Shown here: positions 26,178 through 33,284 of the stretch, in pieces
Numbering within the stretch: the stretch's first letter is position 1
Layout of the letters: each line of letters begins with the position of its first letter
UHGV virus genome: UHGV-0119548
From: a virus
Length of the DNA stretch: 41,934 nucleotides
Strand: one strand, 5' to 3'
Program-made: the position numbers and the translations under genes
Notes under the pieces: model-generated
What the model saw: only the letters and a program-made list of their open reading frames with translations
The model's database searches: none
What the model was told of the DNA's origin: nothing

Positions 26178-26201
26178 GCAAAAACCCGGCGCGGGGCCGG
26201 G
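26178..26201 (-). terminator. intrinsic terminator immediately upstream of holin (tR-prime-like)
   Basis: hairpin CCCGGC-GCGGG-GCCGGG (26185-26201) followed on minus strand by TTTTTGCTTT. Confidence 0.55.
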
Positions 26202-26229
26202 TAATTACAATTTCGCATTGTTAGGAAAT

Positions 26230-26258
26230 ATTTTAATCTGTTTGTTTGCGCTCTACAA
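26230..26258 (-). promoter_or_regulatory. candidate sigma70-type promoter (late, pR-prime-like)
   Basis: minus-strand -35 TTGTAG (26258-26253), 17-nt spacer, -10 TAAAAT (26235-26230); about 25 nt upstream of the terminator hairpin. Confidence 0.3.
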
Positions 26259-26266
26259 ATACGGCG

Positions 26267-26494
26267 TTAACGATAAGGTCCAAGCAAACGAACAAGCCAT
26301 TCTTTGTATTTGACGGCAACGTGTTTTGGTGCAAAATATCCTTGCACTTCCTTACCGCCTCGCCACTCCCTTCTAAATTCGCACTCGTTTTGATACTCCT
26401 TTCCGCTTTTACTATCCAGCCAGCAAGCAGGTGAGTAACCTTTTTCACTTCCGAACCGATGCCATATTGATGACAGCAAAACCCTTTCTTCCAT
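26267..26494 (-). CDS. hypothetical protein (75 aa)
   Basis: ORF with GGGGG RBS; alternative frame 26233-26508 judged less likely. Confidence 0.4.
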   Translation of the reverse strand: MEERVLLSSIWHRFGSEKGYSPACWLDSKSGKEYQNECEFRREWRGGKEVQGYFAPKHVAVKYKEWLVRLLGPYR

Positions 26495-26516
26495 ATTACC
26501 CCCAACAAATACGGCT

Positions 26517-26693
26517 TTACGCAGTTCTGTATATCAGGCCGTTATCAAGCAATGTTTGCATGTGTTCGCGATCCATGTCGCTTAATTCCCAATAAGGAAC
26601 ATCTTCATTCCTTATCATCACCTCTTCGCCTCTCACCAAATAGGCGATGTCAAATACCTTATGCAAATAGATGCCATCTTCGATCTCGTTCAT
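26517..26693 (-). CDS. hypothetical protein (58 aa)
   Basis: ATGA coupling to upstream gene; MNEIEDGIYLHKVFDIAYLV...; below track cutoff. Confidence 0.45.
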   Translation of the reverse strand: MNEIEDGIYLHKVFDIAYLVRGEEVMIRNEDVPYWELSDMDREHMQTLLDNGLIYRTA

Positions 26694-26872
26694 AGGTCGC
26701 TAACCTTTACCAGTTCACCAGCATCAAGAAATATTTTAATTGTTTCTCGCGTCGTCTTAATGATTGGCGCAACCCACTCGCCACCACCAACACGGATACG
26801 AATATCATCGCCTTCCACGCGATAAAGCAACCCGTCAACTGCTGTTGCTGAGTACACGCCATCTTTAATCAT
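26690..26872 (-). CDS. hypothetical protein (60 aa)
   Basis: ORF in tightly packed array. Confidence 0.45.
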   Translation of the reverse strand: MIKDGVYSATAVDGLLYRVEGDDIRIRVGGGEWVAPIIKTTRETIKIFLDAGELVKVSDL

Positions 26873-27105
26873 TTCTTGCGCTCCTTAATGGCTCGCTTGA
26901 TCTGCACTACCGTAGCATCGAAGAAAGCGAGAAACATAACTACAGGCAATAAAGGAATCTCAATGCCACCAGGTTCAGCGCCGCTATACTTAATAAAACA
27001 TGACATCAGGATCGCGCCAGCTATATAAAGCAAAACAATCACAGCAATAAGGCATTCAATCATAATCATCCTCATCGTCTTCATGTTCAGCCAGGAACTC
27101 ATCAA
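26869..27105 (-). CDS. small membrane protein (78 aa, two TM segments)
   Basis: hydrophobic stretches IMIECLIAVIVLLYIAGAILM and LLPVVMFLAFF. Confidence 0.5.
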   Translation of the reverse strand: MMSSWLNMKTMRMIMIECLIAVIVLLYIAGAILMSCFIKYSGAEPGGIEIPLLPVVMFLAFFDATVVQIKRAIKERKK

Positions 27106-27196
27106 CTACGCGGTAAGTTACTGGCGGGATGTATTCGAAATCATCAGAATCAAGATCGAGCGTCCTGCTGTCGCCGTCGTCGTCCATCGTATTCAT
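27056..27196 (-). CDS. highly acidic small protein (46 aa from ATG 27196; track extends to TTG 27355)
   Basis: MNTMDDDGDSRTLDLDSDDFEYIPPVTYRVVDEFLAEHEDDEDDYD; upstream TTG start would overlap neighbour by 70 nt. Confidence 0.4.
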   Translation of the reverse strand: MNTMDDDGDSRTLDLDSDDFEYIPPVTYRVVDEFLAEHEDDEDDYD

Positions 27197-27284
27197 TCCA
27201 AGTTCACCGAAAGGGCCGTACCCAATATGGCCCAGGTATTCGCAACCAACCGTAAAGCCAGGATATTCACCTTTACACCTGACT

Positions 27285-27626
27285 TTATACAGCTTGTTTG
27301 ATGCGCTCAATTTCCGCCACTCCGTTTTCTCCTTCAGTGATTTTGTATTCCGCAACCAGTTCAGCGCCGATCAAATCCACTTCGTTTTTAGATGTTTTAT
27401 GGCTAGAATCAAACATCAGCGAGGCAAAAACGAAGTGTTTAACGTGATTTTCATCTTCAAGGTGTTTCACATCGAAAGGCGGTTCAGATACATGGAAGCA
27501 CTTGATGTGAGCGTCGTTATCAGTAGCTACGCGGAAACATGCGCCAGGTTGCCCGGCGTACTGTCCCAATCTTTCTTCGTTCGGTAAAGTACCACGGAAA
27601 ACTTTAACGCTGATAAATTTGTACAT
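27285..27626 (-). CDS. hypothetical protein (113 aa)
   Basis: ORF in packed array. Confidence 0.5.
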   Translation of the reverse strand: MYKFISVKVFRGTLPNEERLGQYAGQPGACFRVATDNDAHIKCFHVSEPPFDVKHLEDENHVKHFVFASLMFDSSHKTSKNEVDLIGAELVAEYKITEGENGVAEIERIKQAV

Positions 27627-27649
27627 TGCTTATTCTCCTTAGTAATAAA

Positions 27650-27949
27650 TTAAAATTCAGCACCGGGTAAGCTACGCGCTTTATTTATAACATCTTGTTT
27701 TAACAATAATAGTGAGTGATAATGCATGTTAAACATGCTGCAAAGTGGCGTTTCACTATTTTCTGACTTAATTTTGAATAACTGGTTTGCAGTAAAAATC
27801 ATGTCGTCGTCTGTTATGTATAACCAGTCTCCGCGCTTGCCAACTACAACATGAGATTTTCCCCAACTGTCTTTAAATTCATAATCGCAGAAGGCATCAC
27901 CTTTAGGCACTTCAACAAAACAGCACGCTATGAATTTATCGCTTTTCAT
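27650..27949 (-). CDS. hypothetical protein (99 aa)
   Basis: ORF with GAAGGG RBS. Confidence 0.5.
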   Translation of the reverse strand: MKSDKFIACCFVEVPKGDAFCDYEFKDSWGKSHVVVGKRGDWLYITDDDMIFTANQLFKIKSENSETPLCSMFNMHYHSLLLLKQDVINKARSLPGAEF

Positions 27950-27992
27950 GATTCAACCCTTCTGGTTTGATGGAGCCATCCGACCCCGTGCT

Positions 27993-28133
27993 TTATCCTT
28001 CTTTGCCTCCTTTGAACCCCAAACACTCCGCGTATTCGTCAATGCTTAATGCTTCTTCACCTGGTGCCAATACTTCAAAGTAGCGGGCGTATAGTTCGAA
28101 AACCCAGGCCGGATATTTAGCGTTAGCGTTCAT
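27993..28133 (-). CDS. hypothetical protein (46 aa)
   Basis: ATG with GGGGGAA RBS; MNANAKYPAWVFELYARYFEVLAPGEEALSIDEYAECLGFKGGKEG. Confidence 0.4.
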   Translation of the reverse strand: MNANAKYPAWVFELYARYFEVLAPGEEALSIDEYAECLGFKGGKEG

Positions 28134-28142
28134 GGTTCCCCC

Positions 28143-28421
28143 TTATGCCATGCGTGCAAATTCAAGTGATTTGCATTCGTAGTCTTCCTCTGCCTGTTCG
28201 ATGACTGCCATCATCATTTCGTTTGCGTTGTTGAATGCGTTGCTTTGTGCGAACTTGTCGGCTCCACCTTCTTCTTCGAACTCCGCGTTGTTTGCTGCAA
28301 TGTAGTGATATTCGATGTTGTTCAGGTAAGGGCTTGCAGCGTGTGCTGGGTCTTCTTTCTCCACCATCTCCCAAAATGCGTTTAAGCGAGATTCGACTTC
28401 TTTGTTAATCCAGCGTTTCAT
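28143..28421 (-). CDS. hypothetical acidic protein (92 aa)
   Basis: ORF; Glu/Asp/Ala-rich. Confidence 0.5.
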   Translation of the reverse strand: MKRWINKEVESRLNAFWEMVEKEDPAHAASPYLNNIEYHYIAANNAEFEEEGGADKFAQSNAFNNANEMMMAVIEQAEEDYECKSLEFARMA

Positions 28422-28459
28422 TTTTCTACCCTCCGCATCGTTCTCTCTTCAGCTTCTTT

Positions 28460-28500
28460 ATAACAAAATGGCACTGCCGAAACAATGCCATTTCGTAAAC
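28460..28500. promoter_or_regulatory. imperfect inverted ACAAAATGGCA / TGCCATTTCGT motif pair
   Basis: ATAACAAAATGGCA 28460-28473 and TGCCATTTCGTAAAC 28486-28500; intergenic between two minus genes. Confidence 0.35.
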
Positions 28501-28519
28501 CTTGTGATACAGATCACAT

Positions 28520-28744
28520 TTACGTTTCTTCCGTAAAAGTAACCTTCATCGCCCCATCCGAACTACGGACAACATAACGACCAATACCGCCTAGCGGCCC
28601 TGCATACCATAAGTGACCGTAAGTGTCAGTTACGACGATAAACGGAAATTTAGGAGACAATCCCATCGGTTTTTCAGCCGTATACTGTGCGCCTTCTTCA
28701 AAACAGCCTAATTTCGATTCGTTACACGTTAAAATCATTTTCAT
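28520..28744 (-). CDS. paralog family member 4 (74 aa)
   Basis: shares motif h-h-TD-x3-h-W with three upstream neighbours (FIVVTDTYGHLWYAG). Confidence 0.55.
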   Translation of the reverse strand: MKMILTCNESKLGCFEEGAQYTAEKPMGLSPKFPFIVVTDTYGHLWYAGPLGGIGRYVVRSSDGAMKVTFTEET

Positions 28745-28980
28745 ACCCCTACATACGAAAACGCAGCAAAAGCACCACCACCAGCACGCGCATAAACAAG
28801 TGCCGTGCCATACCCCATCTTATAAAATCGCCATAACTGACCCTGGTCGTCAGTAATGGCATGAATATATTCCTGATCCTTTGCGTCAACCAATGCCGCG
28901 TCAACCTCGTAGATCTTGCCATTCTTAAAAAACGCGCTGCATCGTGAGTATGTGCACTGGTATCTATGTTTCCGATTCAT
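28741..28980 (-). CDS. paralog family member 3 (79 aa)
   Basis: FKNGKIYEV...IHAITDDQGQLWRFY; ATGA coupling. Confidence 0.55.
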   Translation of the reverse strand: MNRKHRYQCTYSRCSAFFKNGKIYEVDAALVDAKDQEYIHAITDDQGQLWRFYKMGYGTALVYARAGGGAFAAFSYVGV

Positions 28981-28990
28981 AGCACCTCAC

Positions 28991-29248
28991 TTATTCCGGT
29001 TTACTGCCTTCGCGGGCGCAAAACTCCGCGATCTCACGGAAATCATGCACTATGCGATAAATATACAAACCAGCGGCGTTATTGATATGGCTAACATAAG
29101 CGAAATAAACTTTATCATCATCGCCAGTTATCGCCATTGCACCATCACCGCCCGGTGCGCCGTGGAGTTGAACGCCGCAATAGATCTTCCCTTCTTCAAA
29201 AATATTGCGGTCGCGCGTCTGCAATACCTCAAAATATAAATGTTTCAT
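28991..29248 (-). CDS. paralog family member 2 (85 aa from ATG 29248)
   Basis: FEEGKIYCG...AMAITGDDDKVYFAY; RBS AGGGG. Confidence 0.55.
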   Translation of the reverse strand: MKHLYFEVLQTRDRNIFEEGKIYCGVQLHGAPGGDGAMAITGDDDKVYFAYVSHINNAAGLYIYRIVHDFREIAEFCAREGSKPE

Positions 29249-29258
29249 TGTTGCCCCT

Positions 29259-29471
29259 TTAATAACGTTCAAAGCTGGCAGCAAAACCTACACCGGATAT
29301 TTCACCGCCTTCATAGCTCGGCCTGAATACCCATATTTCGTCATGATTATCAATCAAGGCAAGGCAATTACTCATTGTGTGTGCTTCATTGCCATAAACG
29401 ATGTGAACGTCATAAATACTCCCAATCGTGAAAACACTGTCATTGCTTGAGTATGAGCATTTAACTTGCAT
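29259..29471 (-). CDS. paralog family member 1 (70 aa)
   Basis: GSIYDVH...CLALIDNHDEIWVFR. Confidence 0.55.
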   Translation of the reverse strand: MQVKCSYSSNDSVFTIGSIYDVHIVYGNEAHTMSNCLALIDNHDEIWVFRPSYEGGEISGVGFAASFERY

Positions 29472-29716
29472 CAGAAAACCCCTTTATAATCGACCGTGTA
29501 TTTTGCTATCAGATTCCAGTCGCAGTAATTAAGCATGTTGCGAGGCTGCCAGCCTTTCATCCCGACCGCCCGCCGCGCAGCGTGACGGCGATAATCATCG
29601 TTATAGTCAGCTATGCACCACGGCTGGAGAACAAACATATAATTTGCTTCATTAACCAGGATAGCCACCAGCTTTCCTGTTGCCTTGTCTTTTGCCCTGA
29701 AATAATTCACTTTCAT
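29471..29716 (-). CDS. hypothetical protein (81 aa)
   Basis: ORF in packed array. Confidence 0.5.
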   Translation of the reverse strand: MKVNYFRAKDKATGKLVAILVNEANYMFVLQPWCIADYNDDYRRHAARRAVGMKGWQPRNMLNYCDWNLIAKYTVDYKGVF

Positions 29717-29928
29717 TTTAACACCTCGTCGATCAACATTTCTTCTTCCAGGTTAGCCGGACGTTTACGAAATATCCCGGCAAAAACCAGATCTTCGAGT
29801 AGGTCTTTACGCTTAAATAACCACTCTTTCATTATCACCCCGTCGTTGCTGCGATATACGACGCCGCTTTTCAGAAAATAAAAAGTGCGGCTATTGGTCT
29901 GTAGGTAGAGATCTTCGTAAACGTCCAT
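29713..29928 (-). CDS. hypothetical protein (71 aa)
   Basis: ORF with ATGA coupling. Confidence 0.5.
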   Translation of the reverse strand: MDVYEDLYLQTNSRTFYFLKSGVVYRSNDGVIMKEWLFKRKDLLEDLVFAGIFRKRPANLEEEMLIDEVLK

Positions 29929-29932
29929 ACCG

Positions 29933-30160
29933 TTAATCCTCTACAATCTCAAGCCCGCGCCCCTTGTCCCCGACGAAATCGCCCAAGCTGAACGTATACG
30001 ACCACGCCGGATTGATGTAATGGTCATCAGCACCAGCGGCAATGAGATCAGCACCATTAATCATGCAAGTAATATCATCGCTATGAACGACATTAACGAC
30101 CTTACCAACAACCTGTTTCAATGACTGGTATCCGTGATCGTGCAAGAATTTAACTTTCAT
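29933..30160 (-). CDS. hypothetical protein (75 aa)
   Basis: ORF in packed array. Confidence 0.5.
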   Translation of the reverse strand: MKVKFLHDHGYQSLKQVVGKVVNVVHSDDITCMINGADLIAAGADDHYINPAWSYTFSLGDFVGDKGRGLEIVED

Positions 30161-30390
30161 TCGTCTGCCTCCCAGTGGTCTATGCTGATTAAAAAGTCCC
30201 GGATAGCGTGTCGTTCGTCGCGCGTTGGCTTGCGCTTACGGTAAATCTTAAAGTCAAACCATTCTTTTTCTTGTTCGAAATCCAGGTTGTAAGCAAGCAC
30301 CTCAATATATCCACATTCGTGATACTGGTACGCCACGCCAGCACGAACAAAAAAGCGGGTTTTATCCCGCTTGTGTTCATAGATACGCAT
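30157..30390 (-). CDS. hypothetical protein (77 aa)
   Basis: ORF with ATGA coupling. Confidence 0.5.
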   Translation of the reverse strand: MRIYEHKRDKTRFFVRAGVAYQYHECGYIEVLAYNLDFEQEKEWFDFKIYRKRKPTRDERHAIRDFLISIDHWEADE

Positions 30391-30400
30391 ATTTGCCCCA

Positions 30401-30631
30401 CTATGCAGTCGTGTAACTATCTACCAGCTTTTCATCCTTCATTCTGGCAAGCTGGGAGATATTCATCGTGTAGCCTTCATCAGAGAAAAGCCACTCCGCA
30501 GCCTTGCGACGAAAAGCTATATCATCATGGTTGCGCGTCCATGTAGCGATCACCACGCGCTTTCCATCAGTGGCAAACATGGTTAATTCGTTATCAACAA
30601 CGTCGATAGCCTGCCAGATTTTTAGTTCCAT
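30401..30631 (-). CDS. hypothetical protein (76 aa)
   Basis: ORF in packed array. Confidence 0.5.
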   Translation of the reverse strand: MELKIWQAIDVVDNELTMFATDGKRVVIATWTRNHDDIAFRRKAAEWLFSDEGYTMNISQLARMKDEKLVDSYTTA

Positions 30632-30987
30632 GATTTATCACCGTAGATCTTGAATAGTTCACACGCTTTCTGATCTTCAAATATATTCATATGCAGGTCA
30701 CGCAGACGGCGCATTGTTCGGAATCGCGGTCTAAACTCCTGGCTCCGTTTAATGTATTTGCCGCCAATTGAATAAATATGCCCGTATGAATACCATCTAT
30801 TCCCTACCCATATTTCATATTCTTTGCCTTCGTAATTGAATTTTATCGTTAGCTCGTCCACTTCAACTATTGACCATTTATCAATGATGTCATTAAGCAT
30901 TTCGTCCCATTCTTTCAGGAATGGATGCTGATAAAAACCGAAAAGCGTATTTGCAGCGTGGCAAAGGTAATCAATGATTATTTGCAT
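30622..30987 (-). CDS. hypothetical protein (121 aa)
   Basis: ORF in packed array. Confidence 0.5.
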   Translation of the reverse strand: MQIIIDYLCHAANTLFGFYQHPFLKEWDEMLNDIIDKWSIVEVDELTIKFNYEGKEYEIWVGNRWYSYGHIYSIGGKYIKRSQEFRPRFRTMRRLRDLHMNIFEDQKACELFKIYGDKSWN

Positions 30988-31207
30988 ATTTCCACCTTCT
31001 CAATATGTAGTAAATGTTATCGTAAGCTATATTATCCGCATCTTCCTGTGTTATATGTCTGGCATCAAAAAAGAAATCAGCGTCGTGCCATACATGAAAA
31101 AGAAGTCGCGCGAATTGTCTGCGGCGGCGCTTACTGCGTGATAGTTCGTTAAATTCTATTAACGCTTTATCATATGCTCTTATCATGCGCTTACGGTTAC
31201 TTTTCAT
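30971..31207 (-). CDS. basic small protein, paralog pair member b (78 aa)
   Basis: MKSNRKRMIRAYDKALIEF... parallels neighbour MKSRMKRLVRAYDKALMVF... Confidence 0.55.
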   Translation of the reverse strand: MKSNRKRMIRAYDKALIEFNELSRSKRRRRQFARLLFHVWHDADFFFDARHITQEDADNIAYDNIYYILRRWKYANNH

Positions 31208-31211
31208 ATTG

Positions 31212-31412
31212 TCACCACATCATATAGTAAACGTTATCATCTGCTAATTCGTCTGCGTCTCTTTGGCAGTCGATTGTCGCATCATCTTCGTGCCATTCTT
31301 TAGCAAATAAACGCGCCCATTTACGACGCTCACGTTTATTGTGCCGCAGGTCACTAAAAACCATTAAAGCCTTGTCGTAAGCTCTTACCAGGCGTTTCAT
31401 TCTACTTTTCAT
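31212..31412 (-). CDS. basic small protein, paralog pair member a (66 aa)
   Basis: tandem duplicate of 30971-31207. Confidence 0.55.
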   Translation of the reverse strand: MKSRMKRLVRAYDKALMVFSDLRHNKRERRKWARLFAKEWHEDDATIDCQRDADELADDNVYYMMW

Positions 31413-31618
31413 TTTTCACCCTTCCTTAATTCCTTAATTTCAATATTGCGTAACCGGACGTCGCACGGCGTTTCAGATTTACCAGTAAGCGCCAGCGTCA
31501 GGTTTTCAGGTGTCGTGTAAAGAATTATCTCTTTACCAGTGCTAAATTTAATTTCTATGCGGATCTCGTTTTCATCACCGCACAATACGCGGCTAATTGA
31601 CAGGCCAGCTTTTTTCAT
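31409..31618 (-). CDS. hypothetical protein (69 aa)
   Basis: ORF with ATGA coupling. Confidence 0.5.
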   Translation of the reverse strand: MKKAGLSISRVLCGDENEIRIEIKFSTGKEIILYTTPENLTLALTGKSETPCDVRLRNIEIKELRKGEK

Positions 31619-31631
31619 TGCTCAACAAACC

Positions 31632-31943
31632 TTAAAATCTGTATTGCCAGTAAATATCACACTTTATTGCGAATACCTTCACCGGATCAGGGCCGAATAG
31701 TGGATGTTGAATCAACTTGATTTCGTACCCCATGTAAGGCAATACGATAATCCGGTCTTTCTCATCATCCGATGGATAACCCCATTTAATGATTAATCTT
31801 GTGTACTCCCGCCCCTCCAGGCGTTTACGCCAGTATTCATTGTAAAGCCGGTATTCTTCCACCTTCTTTCCCGCCCGGATGGCGTGGAAGTATTCACCTT
31901 TTAAATTCAAATGTAAGTGTTTATTTGCCATCGCTATGATCAT
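31632..31943 (-). CDS. hypothetical protein (103 aa)
   Basis: ORF in packed array. Confidence 0.5.
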   Translation of the reverse strand: MIIAMANKHLHLNLKGEYFHAIRAGKKVEEYRLYNEYWRKRLEGREYTRLIIKWGYPSDDEKDRIIVLPYMGYEIKLIQHPLFGPDPVKVFAIKCDIYWQYRF

Positions 31944-32190
31944 GTAAACAGTCGTTATAGCCTTCGATGTATCCGGTTAATCCTGTGTTACTTACTGACC
32001 AATCAGCCGAACGGCGCTTGATGGCCTTGTCCATAGTCATCTCGTCACCTGGCCCGCCTGGCTCGATGTATTTTCTTAAATCCCTTACTATCCACGCCCT
32101 TAATTGTTGCGTATCACTGCACACACGCGCCGTTAATGTCAGATTATTAACCAGCTTTGCGAATAGATGTTCTTTTAATTTAGGCTTCAT
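31921..32190 (-). CDS. hypothetical protein (89 aa)
   Basis: ORF in packed array. Confidence 0.5.
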   Translation of the reverse strand: MKPKLKEHLFAKLVNNLTLTARVCSDTQQLRAWIVRDLRKYIEPGGPGDEMTMDKAIKRRSADWSVSNTGLTGYIEGYNDCLHDHSDGK

Positions 32191-32380
32191 CCTTCACCTC
32201 GCGACGATAGATTTCTACTGGCTTAACCGGAATAGCGTTAAAATCACCTTCATCCAGTGCGGCAATAAACGTTAGCGCCAACCGTGCTTCAACACCGCTT
32301 AAATACTTGCACCATGCCTCACCGTTATAATCTTTAAAAAGAATAATCACTTTTTTCATGTTTATCTCTTGTTGTTTCAT
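32180..32380 (-). CDS. hypothetical protein (66 aa)
   Basis: ATG overlaps Q stop by 1 nt (TAATG); RBS GGGGTGA. Confidence 0.5.
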   Translation of the reverse strand: MKQQEINMKKVIILFKDYNGEAWCKYLSGVEARLALTFIAALDEGDFNAIPVKPVEIYRREVKDEA

Positions 32381-33102
32381 TATTCACCCCGTGTCACTCG
32401 TTTAATTTCGTTATCAGCCCGCGCCTCTTCTTTGAACAATTCAGTAATGGCGTCTTCATAGAAAGCACGGTATTTCTTCCACCACGTTGATCGGCTTACC
32501 GGAAATACAAGCTGATTAACCGCACGCCGGACAAGATCTACAGGGAAACGCGAGTACCCGCGCCCGCCGCAATGCTGGCACGTTTTGAACGCTGGCATTT
32601 CCGCTGCTTCACTGGCTGCTTTATCCGGTATCTCGCCGCGCCCTTTGCATCGTTTACAATGATTGCGAACTTTTCCATGCCCCTTGCATTTTTTGCAAAG
32701 GTGTTTTTCTCCGTAGTCGTCAAACGTAAATTTATATCCGCCGCAATCCATACAAGTTTTTTCTGTCGCGGCACTCTGGCAGTAATCCCGAAACGCGAAA
32801 ACGGCAACAAGAATAATAAGATCATTGCGTTTGTCCTCGTCCAACTCCATGACGTATTCGTAATCTTTTGCCATAGCTCTTAAACGCTCTGTAAGCAAAA
32901 CTACGGCCCTGTGTTTTTCGGCTTGCGATAATTCCATCTTCCCTAAAAAAGCGCTATAACCAAGCTCTACGCGCGATTGCGCCATACCTGCTGCGGTTAG
33001 TGCATCAGTAGTATTAAGCGAGTCTGGGGACGTGCCCCGGCTTTCATCTGACAAACGCGGTGATTTTGGGAGGTGGAATTTAAGAATAGATTCCAAATTC
33101 AT
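32380..33102 (-). CDS. Q: late-gene antiterminator Q-like protein (240 aa) with four CxxCxGxG zinc-finger repeats
   Basis: N-terminus MNLESILKFHLPKSPRLSDESRGTSPDSL...AAGMAQS resembles lambda Q as recalled; central Cys-rich region; downstream of NinG-RusA. Confidence 0.8.
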   Translation of the reverse strand: MNLESILKFHLPKSPRLSDESRGTSPDSLNTTDALTAAGMAQSRVELGYSAFLGKMELSQAEKHRAVVLLTERLRAMAKDYEYVMELDEDKRNDLIILVAVFAFRDYCQSAATEKTCMDCGGYKFTFDDYGEKHLCKKCKGHGKVRNHCKRCKGRGEIPDKAASEAAEMPAFKTCQHCGGRGYSRFPVDLVRRAVNQLVFPVSRSTWWKKYRAFYEDAITELFKEEARADNEIKRVTRGE

Positions 33103-33284
33103 TATTTACCCCCGTAACGTGCAACCAGTCTTTTGCGATCAGATATTGATTGCACTAGCTTTCTTTCAAACTCTTTCAGTGCAAGTAATTCTCGCATGTG
33201 AAAAGCCTGAATTTGTCGGACTGTGGCTAAATCACGCTCGTCGCGCTGAATATCTATTTGCAGATCTTTAATTTCGTTTTTCAT
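33102..33284 (-). CDS. hypothetical coiled-coil protein (about 60 aa)
   Basis: ATG 33284 two nt after RusA stop with GGTGGT RBS; overlaps Q start by 1 nt. Confidence 0.4.
   Translation of the reverse strand: MKNEIKDLQIDIQRDERDLATVRQIQAFHMRELLALKEFERKLVQSISDRKRLVARYGGK

Follow-up and report, generated by a model that had tools for sequence, protein, structure and literature searches.

The definition of a lambda-type Q cassette includes a Q gene that adjoins the transcription unit under its control (PMC9388147), and the locus described here raises the question of where Q would act when its gene lies elsewhere. In the stretch of DNA analysed (hereafter the window; 41,934 nucleotides of the UHGV virus genome UHGV-0119548), a Q-like gene and the holin gene are separated by about 6 kb of small genes. 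The original prediction was that a promoter and terminator immediately upstream of the holin gene serve as the substrate of Q over this distance, in the manner of the lambda late promoter, or else that a different late promoter directly follows Q. Comparative evidence supports the first of these, namely an invariant pause-like element, 56 canonical sites of the same architecture and the preservation of the site as a conserved island. From these comparisons we consider it quite probable that positions 26258-26174 (minus strand) are the late-gene control region of this mEpimmI-type phage, an analogue of lambda pR'/qut-tR' that is unlinked from Q.

The features on which the argument draws are listed below; counts of variable alignment columns refer to 36 distinct sequences of the family of loci described in the next section, and the upstream variants A and B are defined with the promoter.

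about 34541-34532, minus strand: boxA-like GCTCTTTAAA, upstream of ninG and Q
32380-33102, minus strand: Q antiterminator gene (PF03589, E = 7.7e-30)
26267-32379, minus strand: variable cassette of about 25 small ORFs (from the ORF list), separating Q from the putative site
26253-26258, minus strand: candidate -35 TTGTAG, weak and not conserved (3/6 match to TTGACA)
26236-26247, minus strand: conserved spacer block AAACAAACAGAT, common to variants A and B (3/12 columns vary)
26230-26235, minus strand: -10 TAAAAT (5/6 match to TATAAT)
26211-26224, minus strand: invariant block CTAACAATGCGAAA (0/14 columns vary)
26222-26217, minus strand: -10-like AACAAT, a putative sigma-dependent pause element, 7 nt after the -10
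26216-26214, minus strand: discriminator-like triplet GCG, directly after AACAAT
26184-26202, minus strand: intrinsic terminator hairpin ACCCGGC-CCCGC-GCCGGGT (tR' analogue), about +21 to +39
26174-26183, minus strand: U-tract TTTTGCTTTG (2/11 columns vary)
26171-26167, minus strand: holin ribosome-binding site GGAGG (holin ATG at 26159)
26159-25959, minus strand: holin gene (Pfam Phage_holin_2_3, E = 7e-14)
25958-25470, minus strand: lysozyme gene (Pfam, E = 4e-44)
25500-25012, minus strand: Rz gene (Pfam, E = 5e-26)

The phage, its Q protein and the distance between Q and the site

The region aligns at 85-93% DNA identity with temperate coliphages of the mEpimmI group, among them mEp021, mEp010, mEp013, mEp044, mEp515, mEp554 and MagusPhagus; the window is a relative of these phages, the mEp021 group, and belongs to a gut coliphage. 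According to PMC11893012, the mEpimmI phages are non-lambdoid, depend on Nus factors and encode both an N-like antiterminator (Gp17) and a Q-lambda-like protein; in human faeces they are reportedly as prevalent as lambdoid phages. Pfam confirmed the identities of the holin, lysozyme, Rz and Q genes. The late operon opens with the holin gene; the lysozyme and Rz genes come next, and the terminase and structural genes after them.

Q itself is a true homologue of Q-lambda, scoring 103 bits against PF03589 (cut-off 26.7) and matching the Q-lambda structure PDB 7ubm with E = 3e-39. It falls in a long Q-lambda subfamily with an extra zinc ribbon, an insertion common to the Q proteins of Salmonella phage ST104 and Erwinia phage Midgardsormr38 (36-41% identity). 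The insertion, a CxxC...CxxC zinc-ribbon-like segment relative to lambda Q, occupies residues ~122-147 (window 32620-32780) and takes a longer form in the Q proteins of ST104, the Erwinia phage and the locus L054; it could serve, for example, as a second DNA-contacting arm.

For comparison we used 56 family loci, drawn from mEp021, E. coli prophages and IMG/VR contigs. Each contains exactly one copy of CTAACAATGCGAAA, and in all of them about 65 nt separate the site from the holin ATG downstream. From the site to the Q stop codon the distance is 1,939-6,737 nt (median 5,470), and 6,156 nt in the window, such that in neither the window nor any of the 56 loci does the regulated unit adjoin Q. 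Of 5,426 complete E. coli genomes, 35 carry the site, and the identical set of 35 carries this type of Q (strains UMNK88, M1/5 and O157:H7 LSU61 are examples); Q and its putative DNA site can be separated by recombination-prone DNA, yet co-occur perfectly (35/35 genomes).

The second possibility originally raised, a late promoter directly after Q, is not supported by the arrangement of the genes. Throughout the family, the Q stop and the ATG of the following ORF share bases (TAATG or TGATG), so that no intergenic DNA is left in which a promoter could follow Q directly; moreover, there is a single site per locus and no similar composite near Q. When a second site was sought near Q or within the cassette, the pattern search returned the known site as its sole exact match, and a composite scan of the window found no second combination of promoter, pause element and terminator in either place. 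We also observed that an ORF of ~60 aa (33105-33284, minus strand) fills the gap between rusA and Q, its stop overlapping the Q start (TAATG), so that with the overlap at the Q stop there is no intergenic DNA on either side of Q. The matching stretch of mEp021 is annotated as non-coding.

Architecture and conservation of the site

All elements of the promoter-hairpin layout lie where they were originally placed, except that 27 nt, rather than about 25, separate the -10 from the hairpin. The same holds for the hexamers of the sigma70-like promoter and their 17-nt spacer, and TAAAAT is invariant (0/6 columns vary among the 36 distinct family sequences); TTGTAG, however, is not a conserved element. 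A consensus scan did not list the TTGTAG/TAAAAT pair, because TTGTAG matches TTGACA at only three of six positions. Promoter-like sites showed no enrichment in the region (16 observed compared with 22.5 expected from shuffles), and the -35/-10 pair on its own is not above chance. Two forms of the upstream sequence occur in the family. In variant A, which includes mEp021, the -35 reads TTGT(A/G/T)(G/T), or in a wider upstream reading GCCGTATTTGT(A/G/T)G, while variant B reads CCATAATCGCGCATAAAAAAC, with TCGCGC at the -35 position and no -35 at a spacing of 16-18 nt. Roughly one locus in three carries variant B, as does MagusPhagus, a viable isolate. The -35 of the original prediction is therefore dispensable, and the strength of the promoter is uncertain given that its -35 is weak and is replaced in variant B.

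In lambda the Q-binding element (QBE) sits between the -35 and the -10 (PMC9388147). Its position makes AAACAAACAGAT, in the promoter spacer, a candidate for such an element here, and so does that of the block AAACAAAYRGAT, which both variants have just upstream of the -10 and which does not resemble the lambda spacer. Q alleles of 240 and of 242 aa show no correlation with the upstream variant (A or B), and the part in which the variants differ is therefore unlikely to be the Q-binding element; AAACAAAYRGAT does not co-vary with the Q alleles either. As a separate observation, the 13-nt ATTAAAATATTTC (minus strand) is repeated exactly at 26728-26740 and at 26225-26237, where it covers the -10 of the site. 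The second copy, inside ORF 26690-26872, forms a promoter-like TTAAGA, 16 nt, TAAAAT with no pause element or terminator downstream; the repeat may reflect chance, microhomology or a weak internal promoter.

Absent from the original description is the AACAAT(GCG) that follows the -10. In lambda, the pause element is AACGAT at +1 to +6, followed by GGG, and this -10-like sequence brings about the sigma-70-dependent pause at +16 on which Q relies (PMC4005639). AACAAT is invariant, and the A and T at its positions 2 and 6 are, at the level of sequence, those expected of such an element. Aligned with lambda pR' (TTGACT, 17 nt, TAAATT, 6 nt, AACGAT, GGG), the site reads TTGTAG, 17 nt, TAAAAT, 7 nt, AACAAT, GCG, and transcription is predicted to start near A26222. 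The pattern TANNNT, 5-7 nt, AACRNT taken alone occurs at chance frequency (11 found, 10.7 expected). When TANNNT, 5-7 nt, AAC(A/G)NT is combined with an intrinsic terminator within 70 nt, the composite occurs once in the window, at the site, and in 4% of shuffled windows; this is more than chance, and the support it gives is modest.

The terminator is robust and more than a chance occurrence. The consensus scan listed its hairpin, which has seven pairs, six of them G-C, and folds at -18.1 kcal/mol (z = -3.35), with none of 200 shuffles as good. Among 31 distinct sequences the stem is 100% paired and the loop varies, without covariation in the stem across the family sequences. This part of the site is known already: public records of sister phages annotate the hairpin as a terminator (GenBank label TERM_5), and it may be the same as the "experimentally demonstrated terminator t5" of mEp021 (PMC11893012, legend to Fig. 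7). In the public-record stretches examined, the terminator is the only element annotated here, with neither promoter nor pause element, and PMC11893012 discusses no promoter, pause element or Q site, its sole mention of a promoter being that of Ptac. The terminated RNA is predicted to be ~40-46 nt long. With its start at +21, the hairpin begins 4-5 nt past the expected pause position and before that of every canonical relative with a convincing terminator (about 50; the earliest at +27).

Variation is distributed unevenly across the site. While no column varies in TAAAAT or in CTAACAATGCGAAA, three of five vary in the 5-nt discriminator, five of eight in the segment between pause element and hairpin, and 35 of 66 (53%) at third-codon positions of the holin gene, which were taken as a neutral proxy. 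This is the pattern that the lambda model predicts, but the argument from conservation is suggestive rather than conclusive, because the family is closely related, so that invariance partly reflects shared ancestry, and because the stem shows no covariation. In several relatives homology sets in exactly at the upstream ORF's stop codon (26269) or inside the spacer (26247). In the prophages L003 and L004, a 74-nt core is 92-93% identical, compared with ~65% for the holin gene and ~55% for the upstream gene, which was called unrelated; judged by these alignments, the site appears as a conserved island between mosaic flanks. The upstream regions of more distant holin relatives (L050-L065) are unrelated to the site.

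We also compared the site with a canonical set, made up of loci encoding Q-lambda-family proteins together with lambda, ST104, the Erwinia phage and L054. Each of the 56 distinct canonical sequences has a -35, a 17-nt spacer, a -10 and, after 5-7 nt, (C)TAAC(G/A)NT, in place of which some canonical sites have CAATGAT, AACCGT or TAATAAT. These sites start 54-81 nt after the Q stop codon (56 distinct Q-lambda-family phages), and in most of them the terminator hairpin begins between +27 and +44. Sites of the ST104 class read CTAACAGTAGAAAT or CTAACACTAGAAAT, where that of the window reads CTAACAATGCGAAAT. A profile HMM built from 49 canonical pR' sites and searched against the window (nhmmer, --max) ranked the site fourth, with a non-significant E of 1.3; the resemblance is therefore one of shared architecture and short motifs rather than proven homology.

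Proposed mechanism and rival readings

Under the explanation that we favour, host sigma-70 polymerase would start at about A26222 from the -10 TAAAAT, the poor -35 being dispensable. Sigma region 2 would then re-bind AACAAT within the first transcribed bases and hold the polymerase in a pause at about +16/+17 (26207-26206). Without Q, transcription would terminate at the hairpin and U-tract, giving an RNA of ~45 nt (end at +40 to +46). With Q present, the protein would bind DNA just upstream of the paused complex, for which AAACAAACAGAT is the candidate site, and would load onto the polymerase, probably together with NusA, a factor that Q-lambda requires (PMC9388147). The modified polymerase would then read through into the holin, lysozyme, Rz, terminase and structural genes. 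The same hairpin would also end the early operon transcript, which carries Q and the cassette. The start site, the pause, the binding of Q and Q-dependent read-through are thus all predictions from the likeness to lambda, and antitermination by the N-like Gp17 from upstream could carry polymerase through the terminator independently of Q.

Alternatively, one could envision that the site is a terminator and nothing else: the hairpin would end the early operon, the promoter and AACAAT would be conserved for another reason or by ancestry, and the late genes would be reached through Gp17/Nus antitermination from an upstream nut site or by Q loaded elsewhere. The -35 is indeed weak and not conserved, the profile search was not significant, and transcription from upstream must enter the site since the interval between the cassette and the site has no terminator. 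Such a reading also draws on the boxA-like GCTCTTTAAA at ~34540 and on the Gp17 antitermination documented for mEp021 (PMC11893012). However, it leaves unexplained why 20 bases (TAAAAT and CTAACAATGCGAAA) are invariant among variable neighbours and against 53% synonymous variation, and why they match lambda and the 56 canonical pause architectures. It would also leave a conserved Q without a target, as no other candidate site was found in the interval between Q and the holin gene or beside Q. We regard it as improbable. Independently of this question, a long hairpin terminator at 34628-34593 (minus strand) is the counterpart of TERM_4 of mEp021; the boxA-like GCTCTTTAAA comes after it and is followed by a small hairpin, GCGC-UGAAAU-GCGU (window 34500-34630). 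This segment (34500-34630), which precedes ninF, ninG, rusA and Q, is probably the nutR2 site of the system of the N-like Gp17.

It is less probable still, in our estimate, that the site lacks a promoter of its own, at least in variant B, and that polymerase of the early operon, carrying or re-binding sigma-70, pauses at TAAAAT/AACAAT and is loaded with Q there, which would make late expression depend on transcription through the cassette. Two tandem -10-like hexamers would suit such in-line loading, as would the lack of a -35 in roughly one locus in three and in a phage isolate, and phage 82 Q engages a promoter-distal sigma-dependent paused complex in vitro (PMC4914094). In the same work, however, NusA antagonised phage 82 Q when the nascent RNA was long, and the authors argue that engagement of Q needs an RNA shorter than ~30 nt (PMC4914094). 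Moreover, all canonical relatives have a real promoter at the equivalent position, and a -10-only promoter is still plausible for TAAAAT. If in-line loading were true, nature would provide an example of promoter-distal engagement by Q, which has so far been seen only on engineered templates (phage 82 Q), and late expression would be wired in series with early transcription. 

A nut-like RNA site is the least likely of these readings, and we give it very little weight. Here the hairpin ACAAU-GCGAA-AUUGU (26221-26207), with its 5-bp stem and GNRA-like pentaloop (-2.6 kcal/mol, z = -3.2), would be a boxB-like element for Gp17, in keeping with the three nut sites of mEp021, whose boxB loops are A-rich (PMC11893012). 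However, a pair of the stem is broken in 14 of 31 distinct sequences, including four of seven isolated phages, its 5' arm (the -10-like AACAAT) is the only invariant part, and no boxA lies upstream. The hairpin was rejected as a boxB because its stem is broken without compensation and it has no boxA. Rfam 15 gave no family at gathering score in the whole window (best sub-threshold score in 25900-26600, 24.5 bits against the required 55), and a search for tRNA genes found none.

The intervening cassette and comparison with known systems

The cassette spans 1.9-6.7 kb in the 56 family loci, and a PHROG scan of 20 of its ORFs gave matches that were all to families of unknown function. Because it lies upstream of the late promoter, it is predicted to be early and co-transcribed with Q in an operon antiterminated by the N-like Gp17; we thus take the cassette to be probably early-expressed. 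This would place a mosaic cassette of 2-7 kb outside the Q-controlled operon and narrow the guesses at its function, for example to host takeover or counter-defence.

Several features of the cassette were noted in passing. A junction sequence, TAA(A/C)GCCGTATTTGT (minus strand), occurs at 26496-26519 and at 26246-26269, after the stops of two consecutive small ORFs, and its two copies flank a 75-aa ORF (26267-26494). In L049, L028 and mEp021, a gene ending in '...LLDNGLIYR*' directly precedes the promoter region. From the repeat and the layout of these relatives, the 75-aa ORF looks inserted, with a 12-13-bp duplication of the junction, and the junction is a possible recombination linker of the mosaic cassette. 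In mid-cassette, a strong terminator-like hairpin, AAGCGGGATAAAACCCGCTT, followed by TTTTGTT (30353-30372, minus strand) lies inside the 5' end of ORF 30157-30390; it could be an internal terminator that requires antitermination, or the start of the ORF may have been miscalled.

For annotation, the site would fix the start of the late operon in mEpimmI phages. As an element of only ~85 bp from the -35 to the U-tract, it is a natural test case for how early Q must load, and it is a possible small part for synthetic circuits.

The likeness to the lambda cassette extends to a homologous Q, a 17-nt spacer, a -10 of the type TAAAnT, an AACnAT -10-like element at the start of the transcript with a G-rich triplet behind it, an intrinsic terminator ahead of the lysis genes and dependence on host Nus factors. 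The differences are that the site lies 6.16 kb from Q, compared with 77 nt in lambda, that the -35 is weak or absent, that the spacer, in which a QBE would be located, is unrelated and that Q carries the extra zinc-ribbon insertion. The leader also differs, with a predicted length of ~45 nt compared with the longer leader of lambda pR', which is 194 nt.

A second comparison is with the late promoters of ST104 (gene 23) and Midgardsormr38, which share with the window a Q of the subfamily with the extra zinc ribbon and an initial transcribed motif of CTAACA(N)T...GAAAT. In many members of the long Q subfamily, including ST104, the leader is short and the terminator hairpin lies at +27 to +44, while in Midgardsormr38 the first hairpin detected starts at +108. 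Sites of the ST104/Midgardsormr38 type nevertheless start 54-81 nt beyond the Q stop, with good -35s (TTGCAA, TTTACT and TTTACA), whereas the site of the window is kilobases from Q and its hairpin comes earlier (+21).

As in Stx and other lambdoid phages (pR'-tR'-stx-S, with the StxS small RNA), accessory genes are found between Q and the lysis genes. As in Stx phages (PMC7547250), a pR' transcript that is constitutive, short and terminated would be expected here too. In Stx-type phages and L054, however, pR'-tR' stays beside Q and the accessory genes lie downstream, where they depend on Q. In the mEpimmI phages they lie upstream of the site and are therefore predicted to be Q-independent, such that an early cassette would stand in contrast to the accessory genes behind pR' of the Stx type. 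Because Q is a diffusible protein, its separation from the site is unusual and not mechanistically surprising. We thus conclude that the site probably works like lambda pR'-tR' but departs from it in the adjacency to Q, and that it represents a modest organisational variant of a textbook system.
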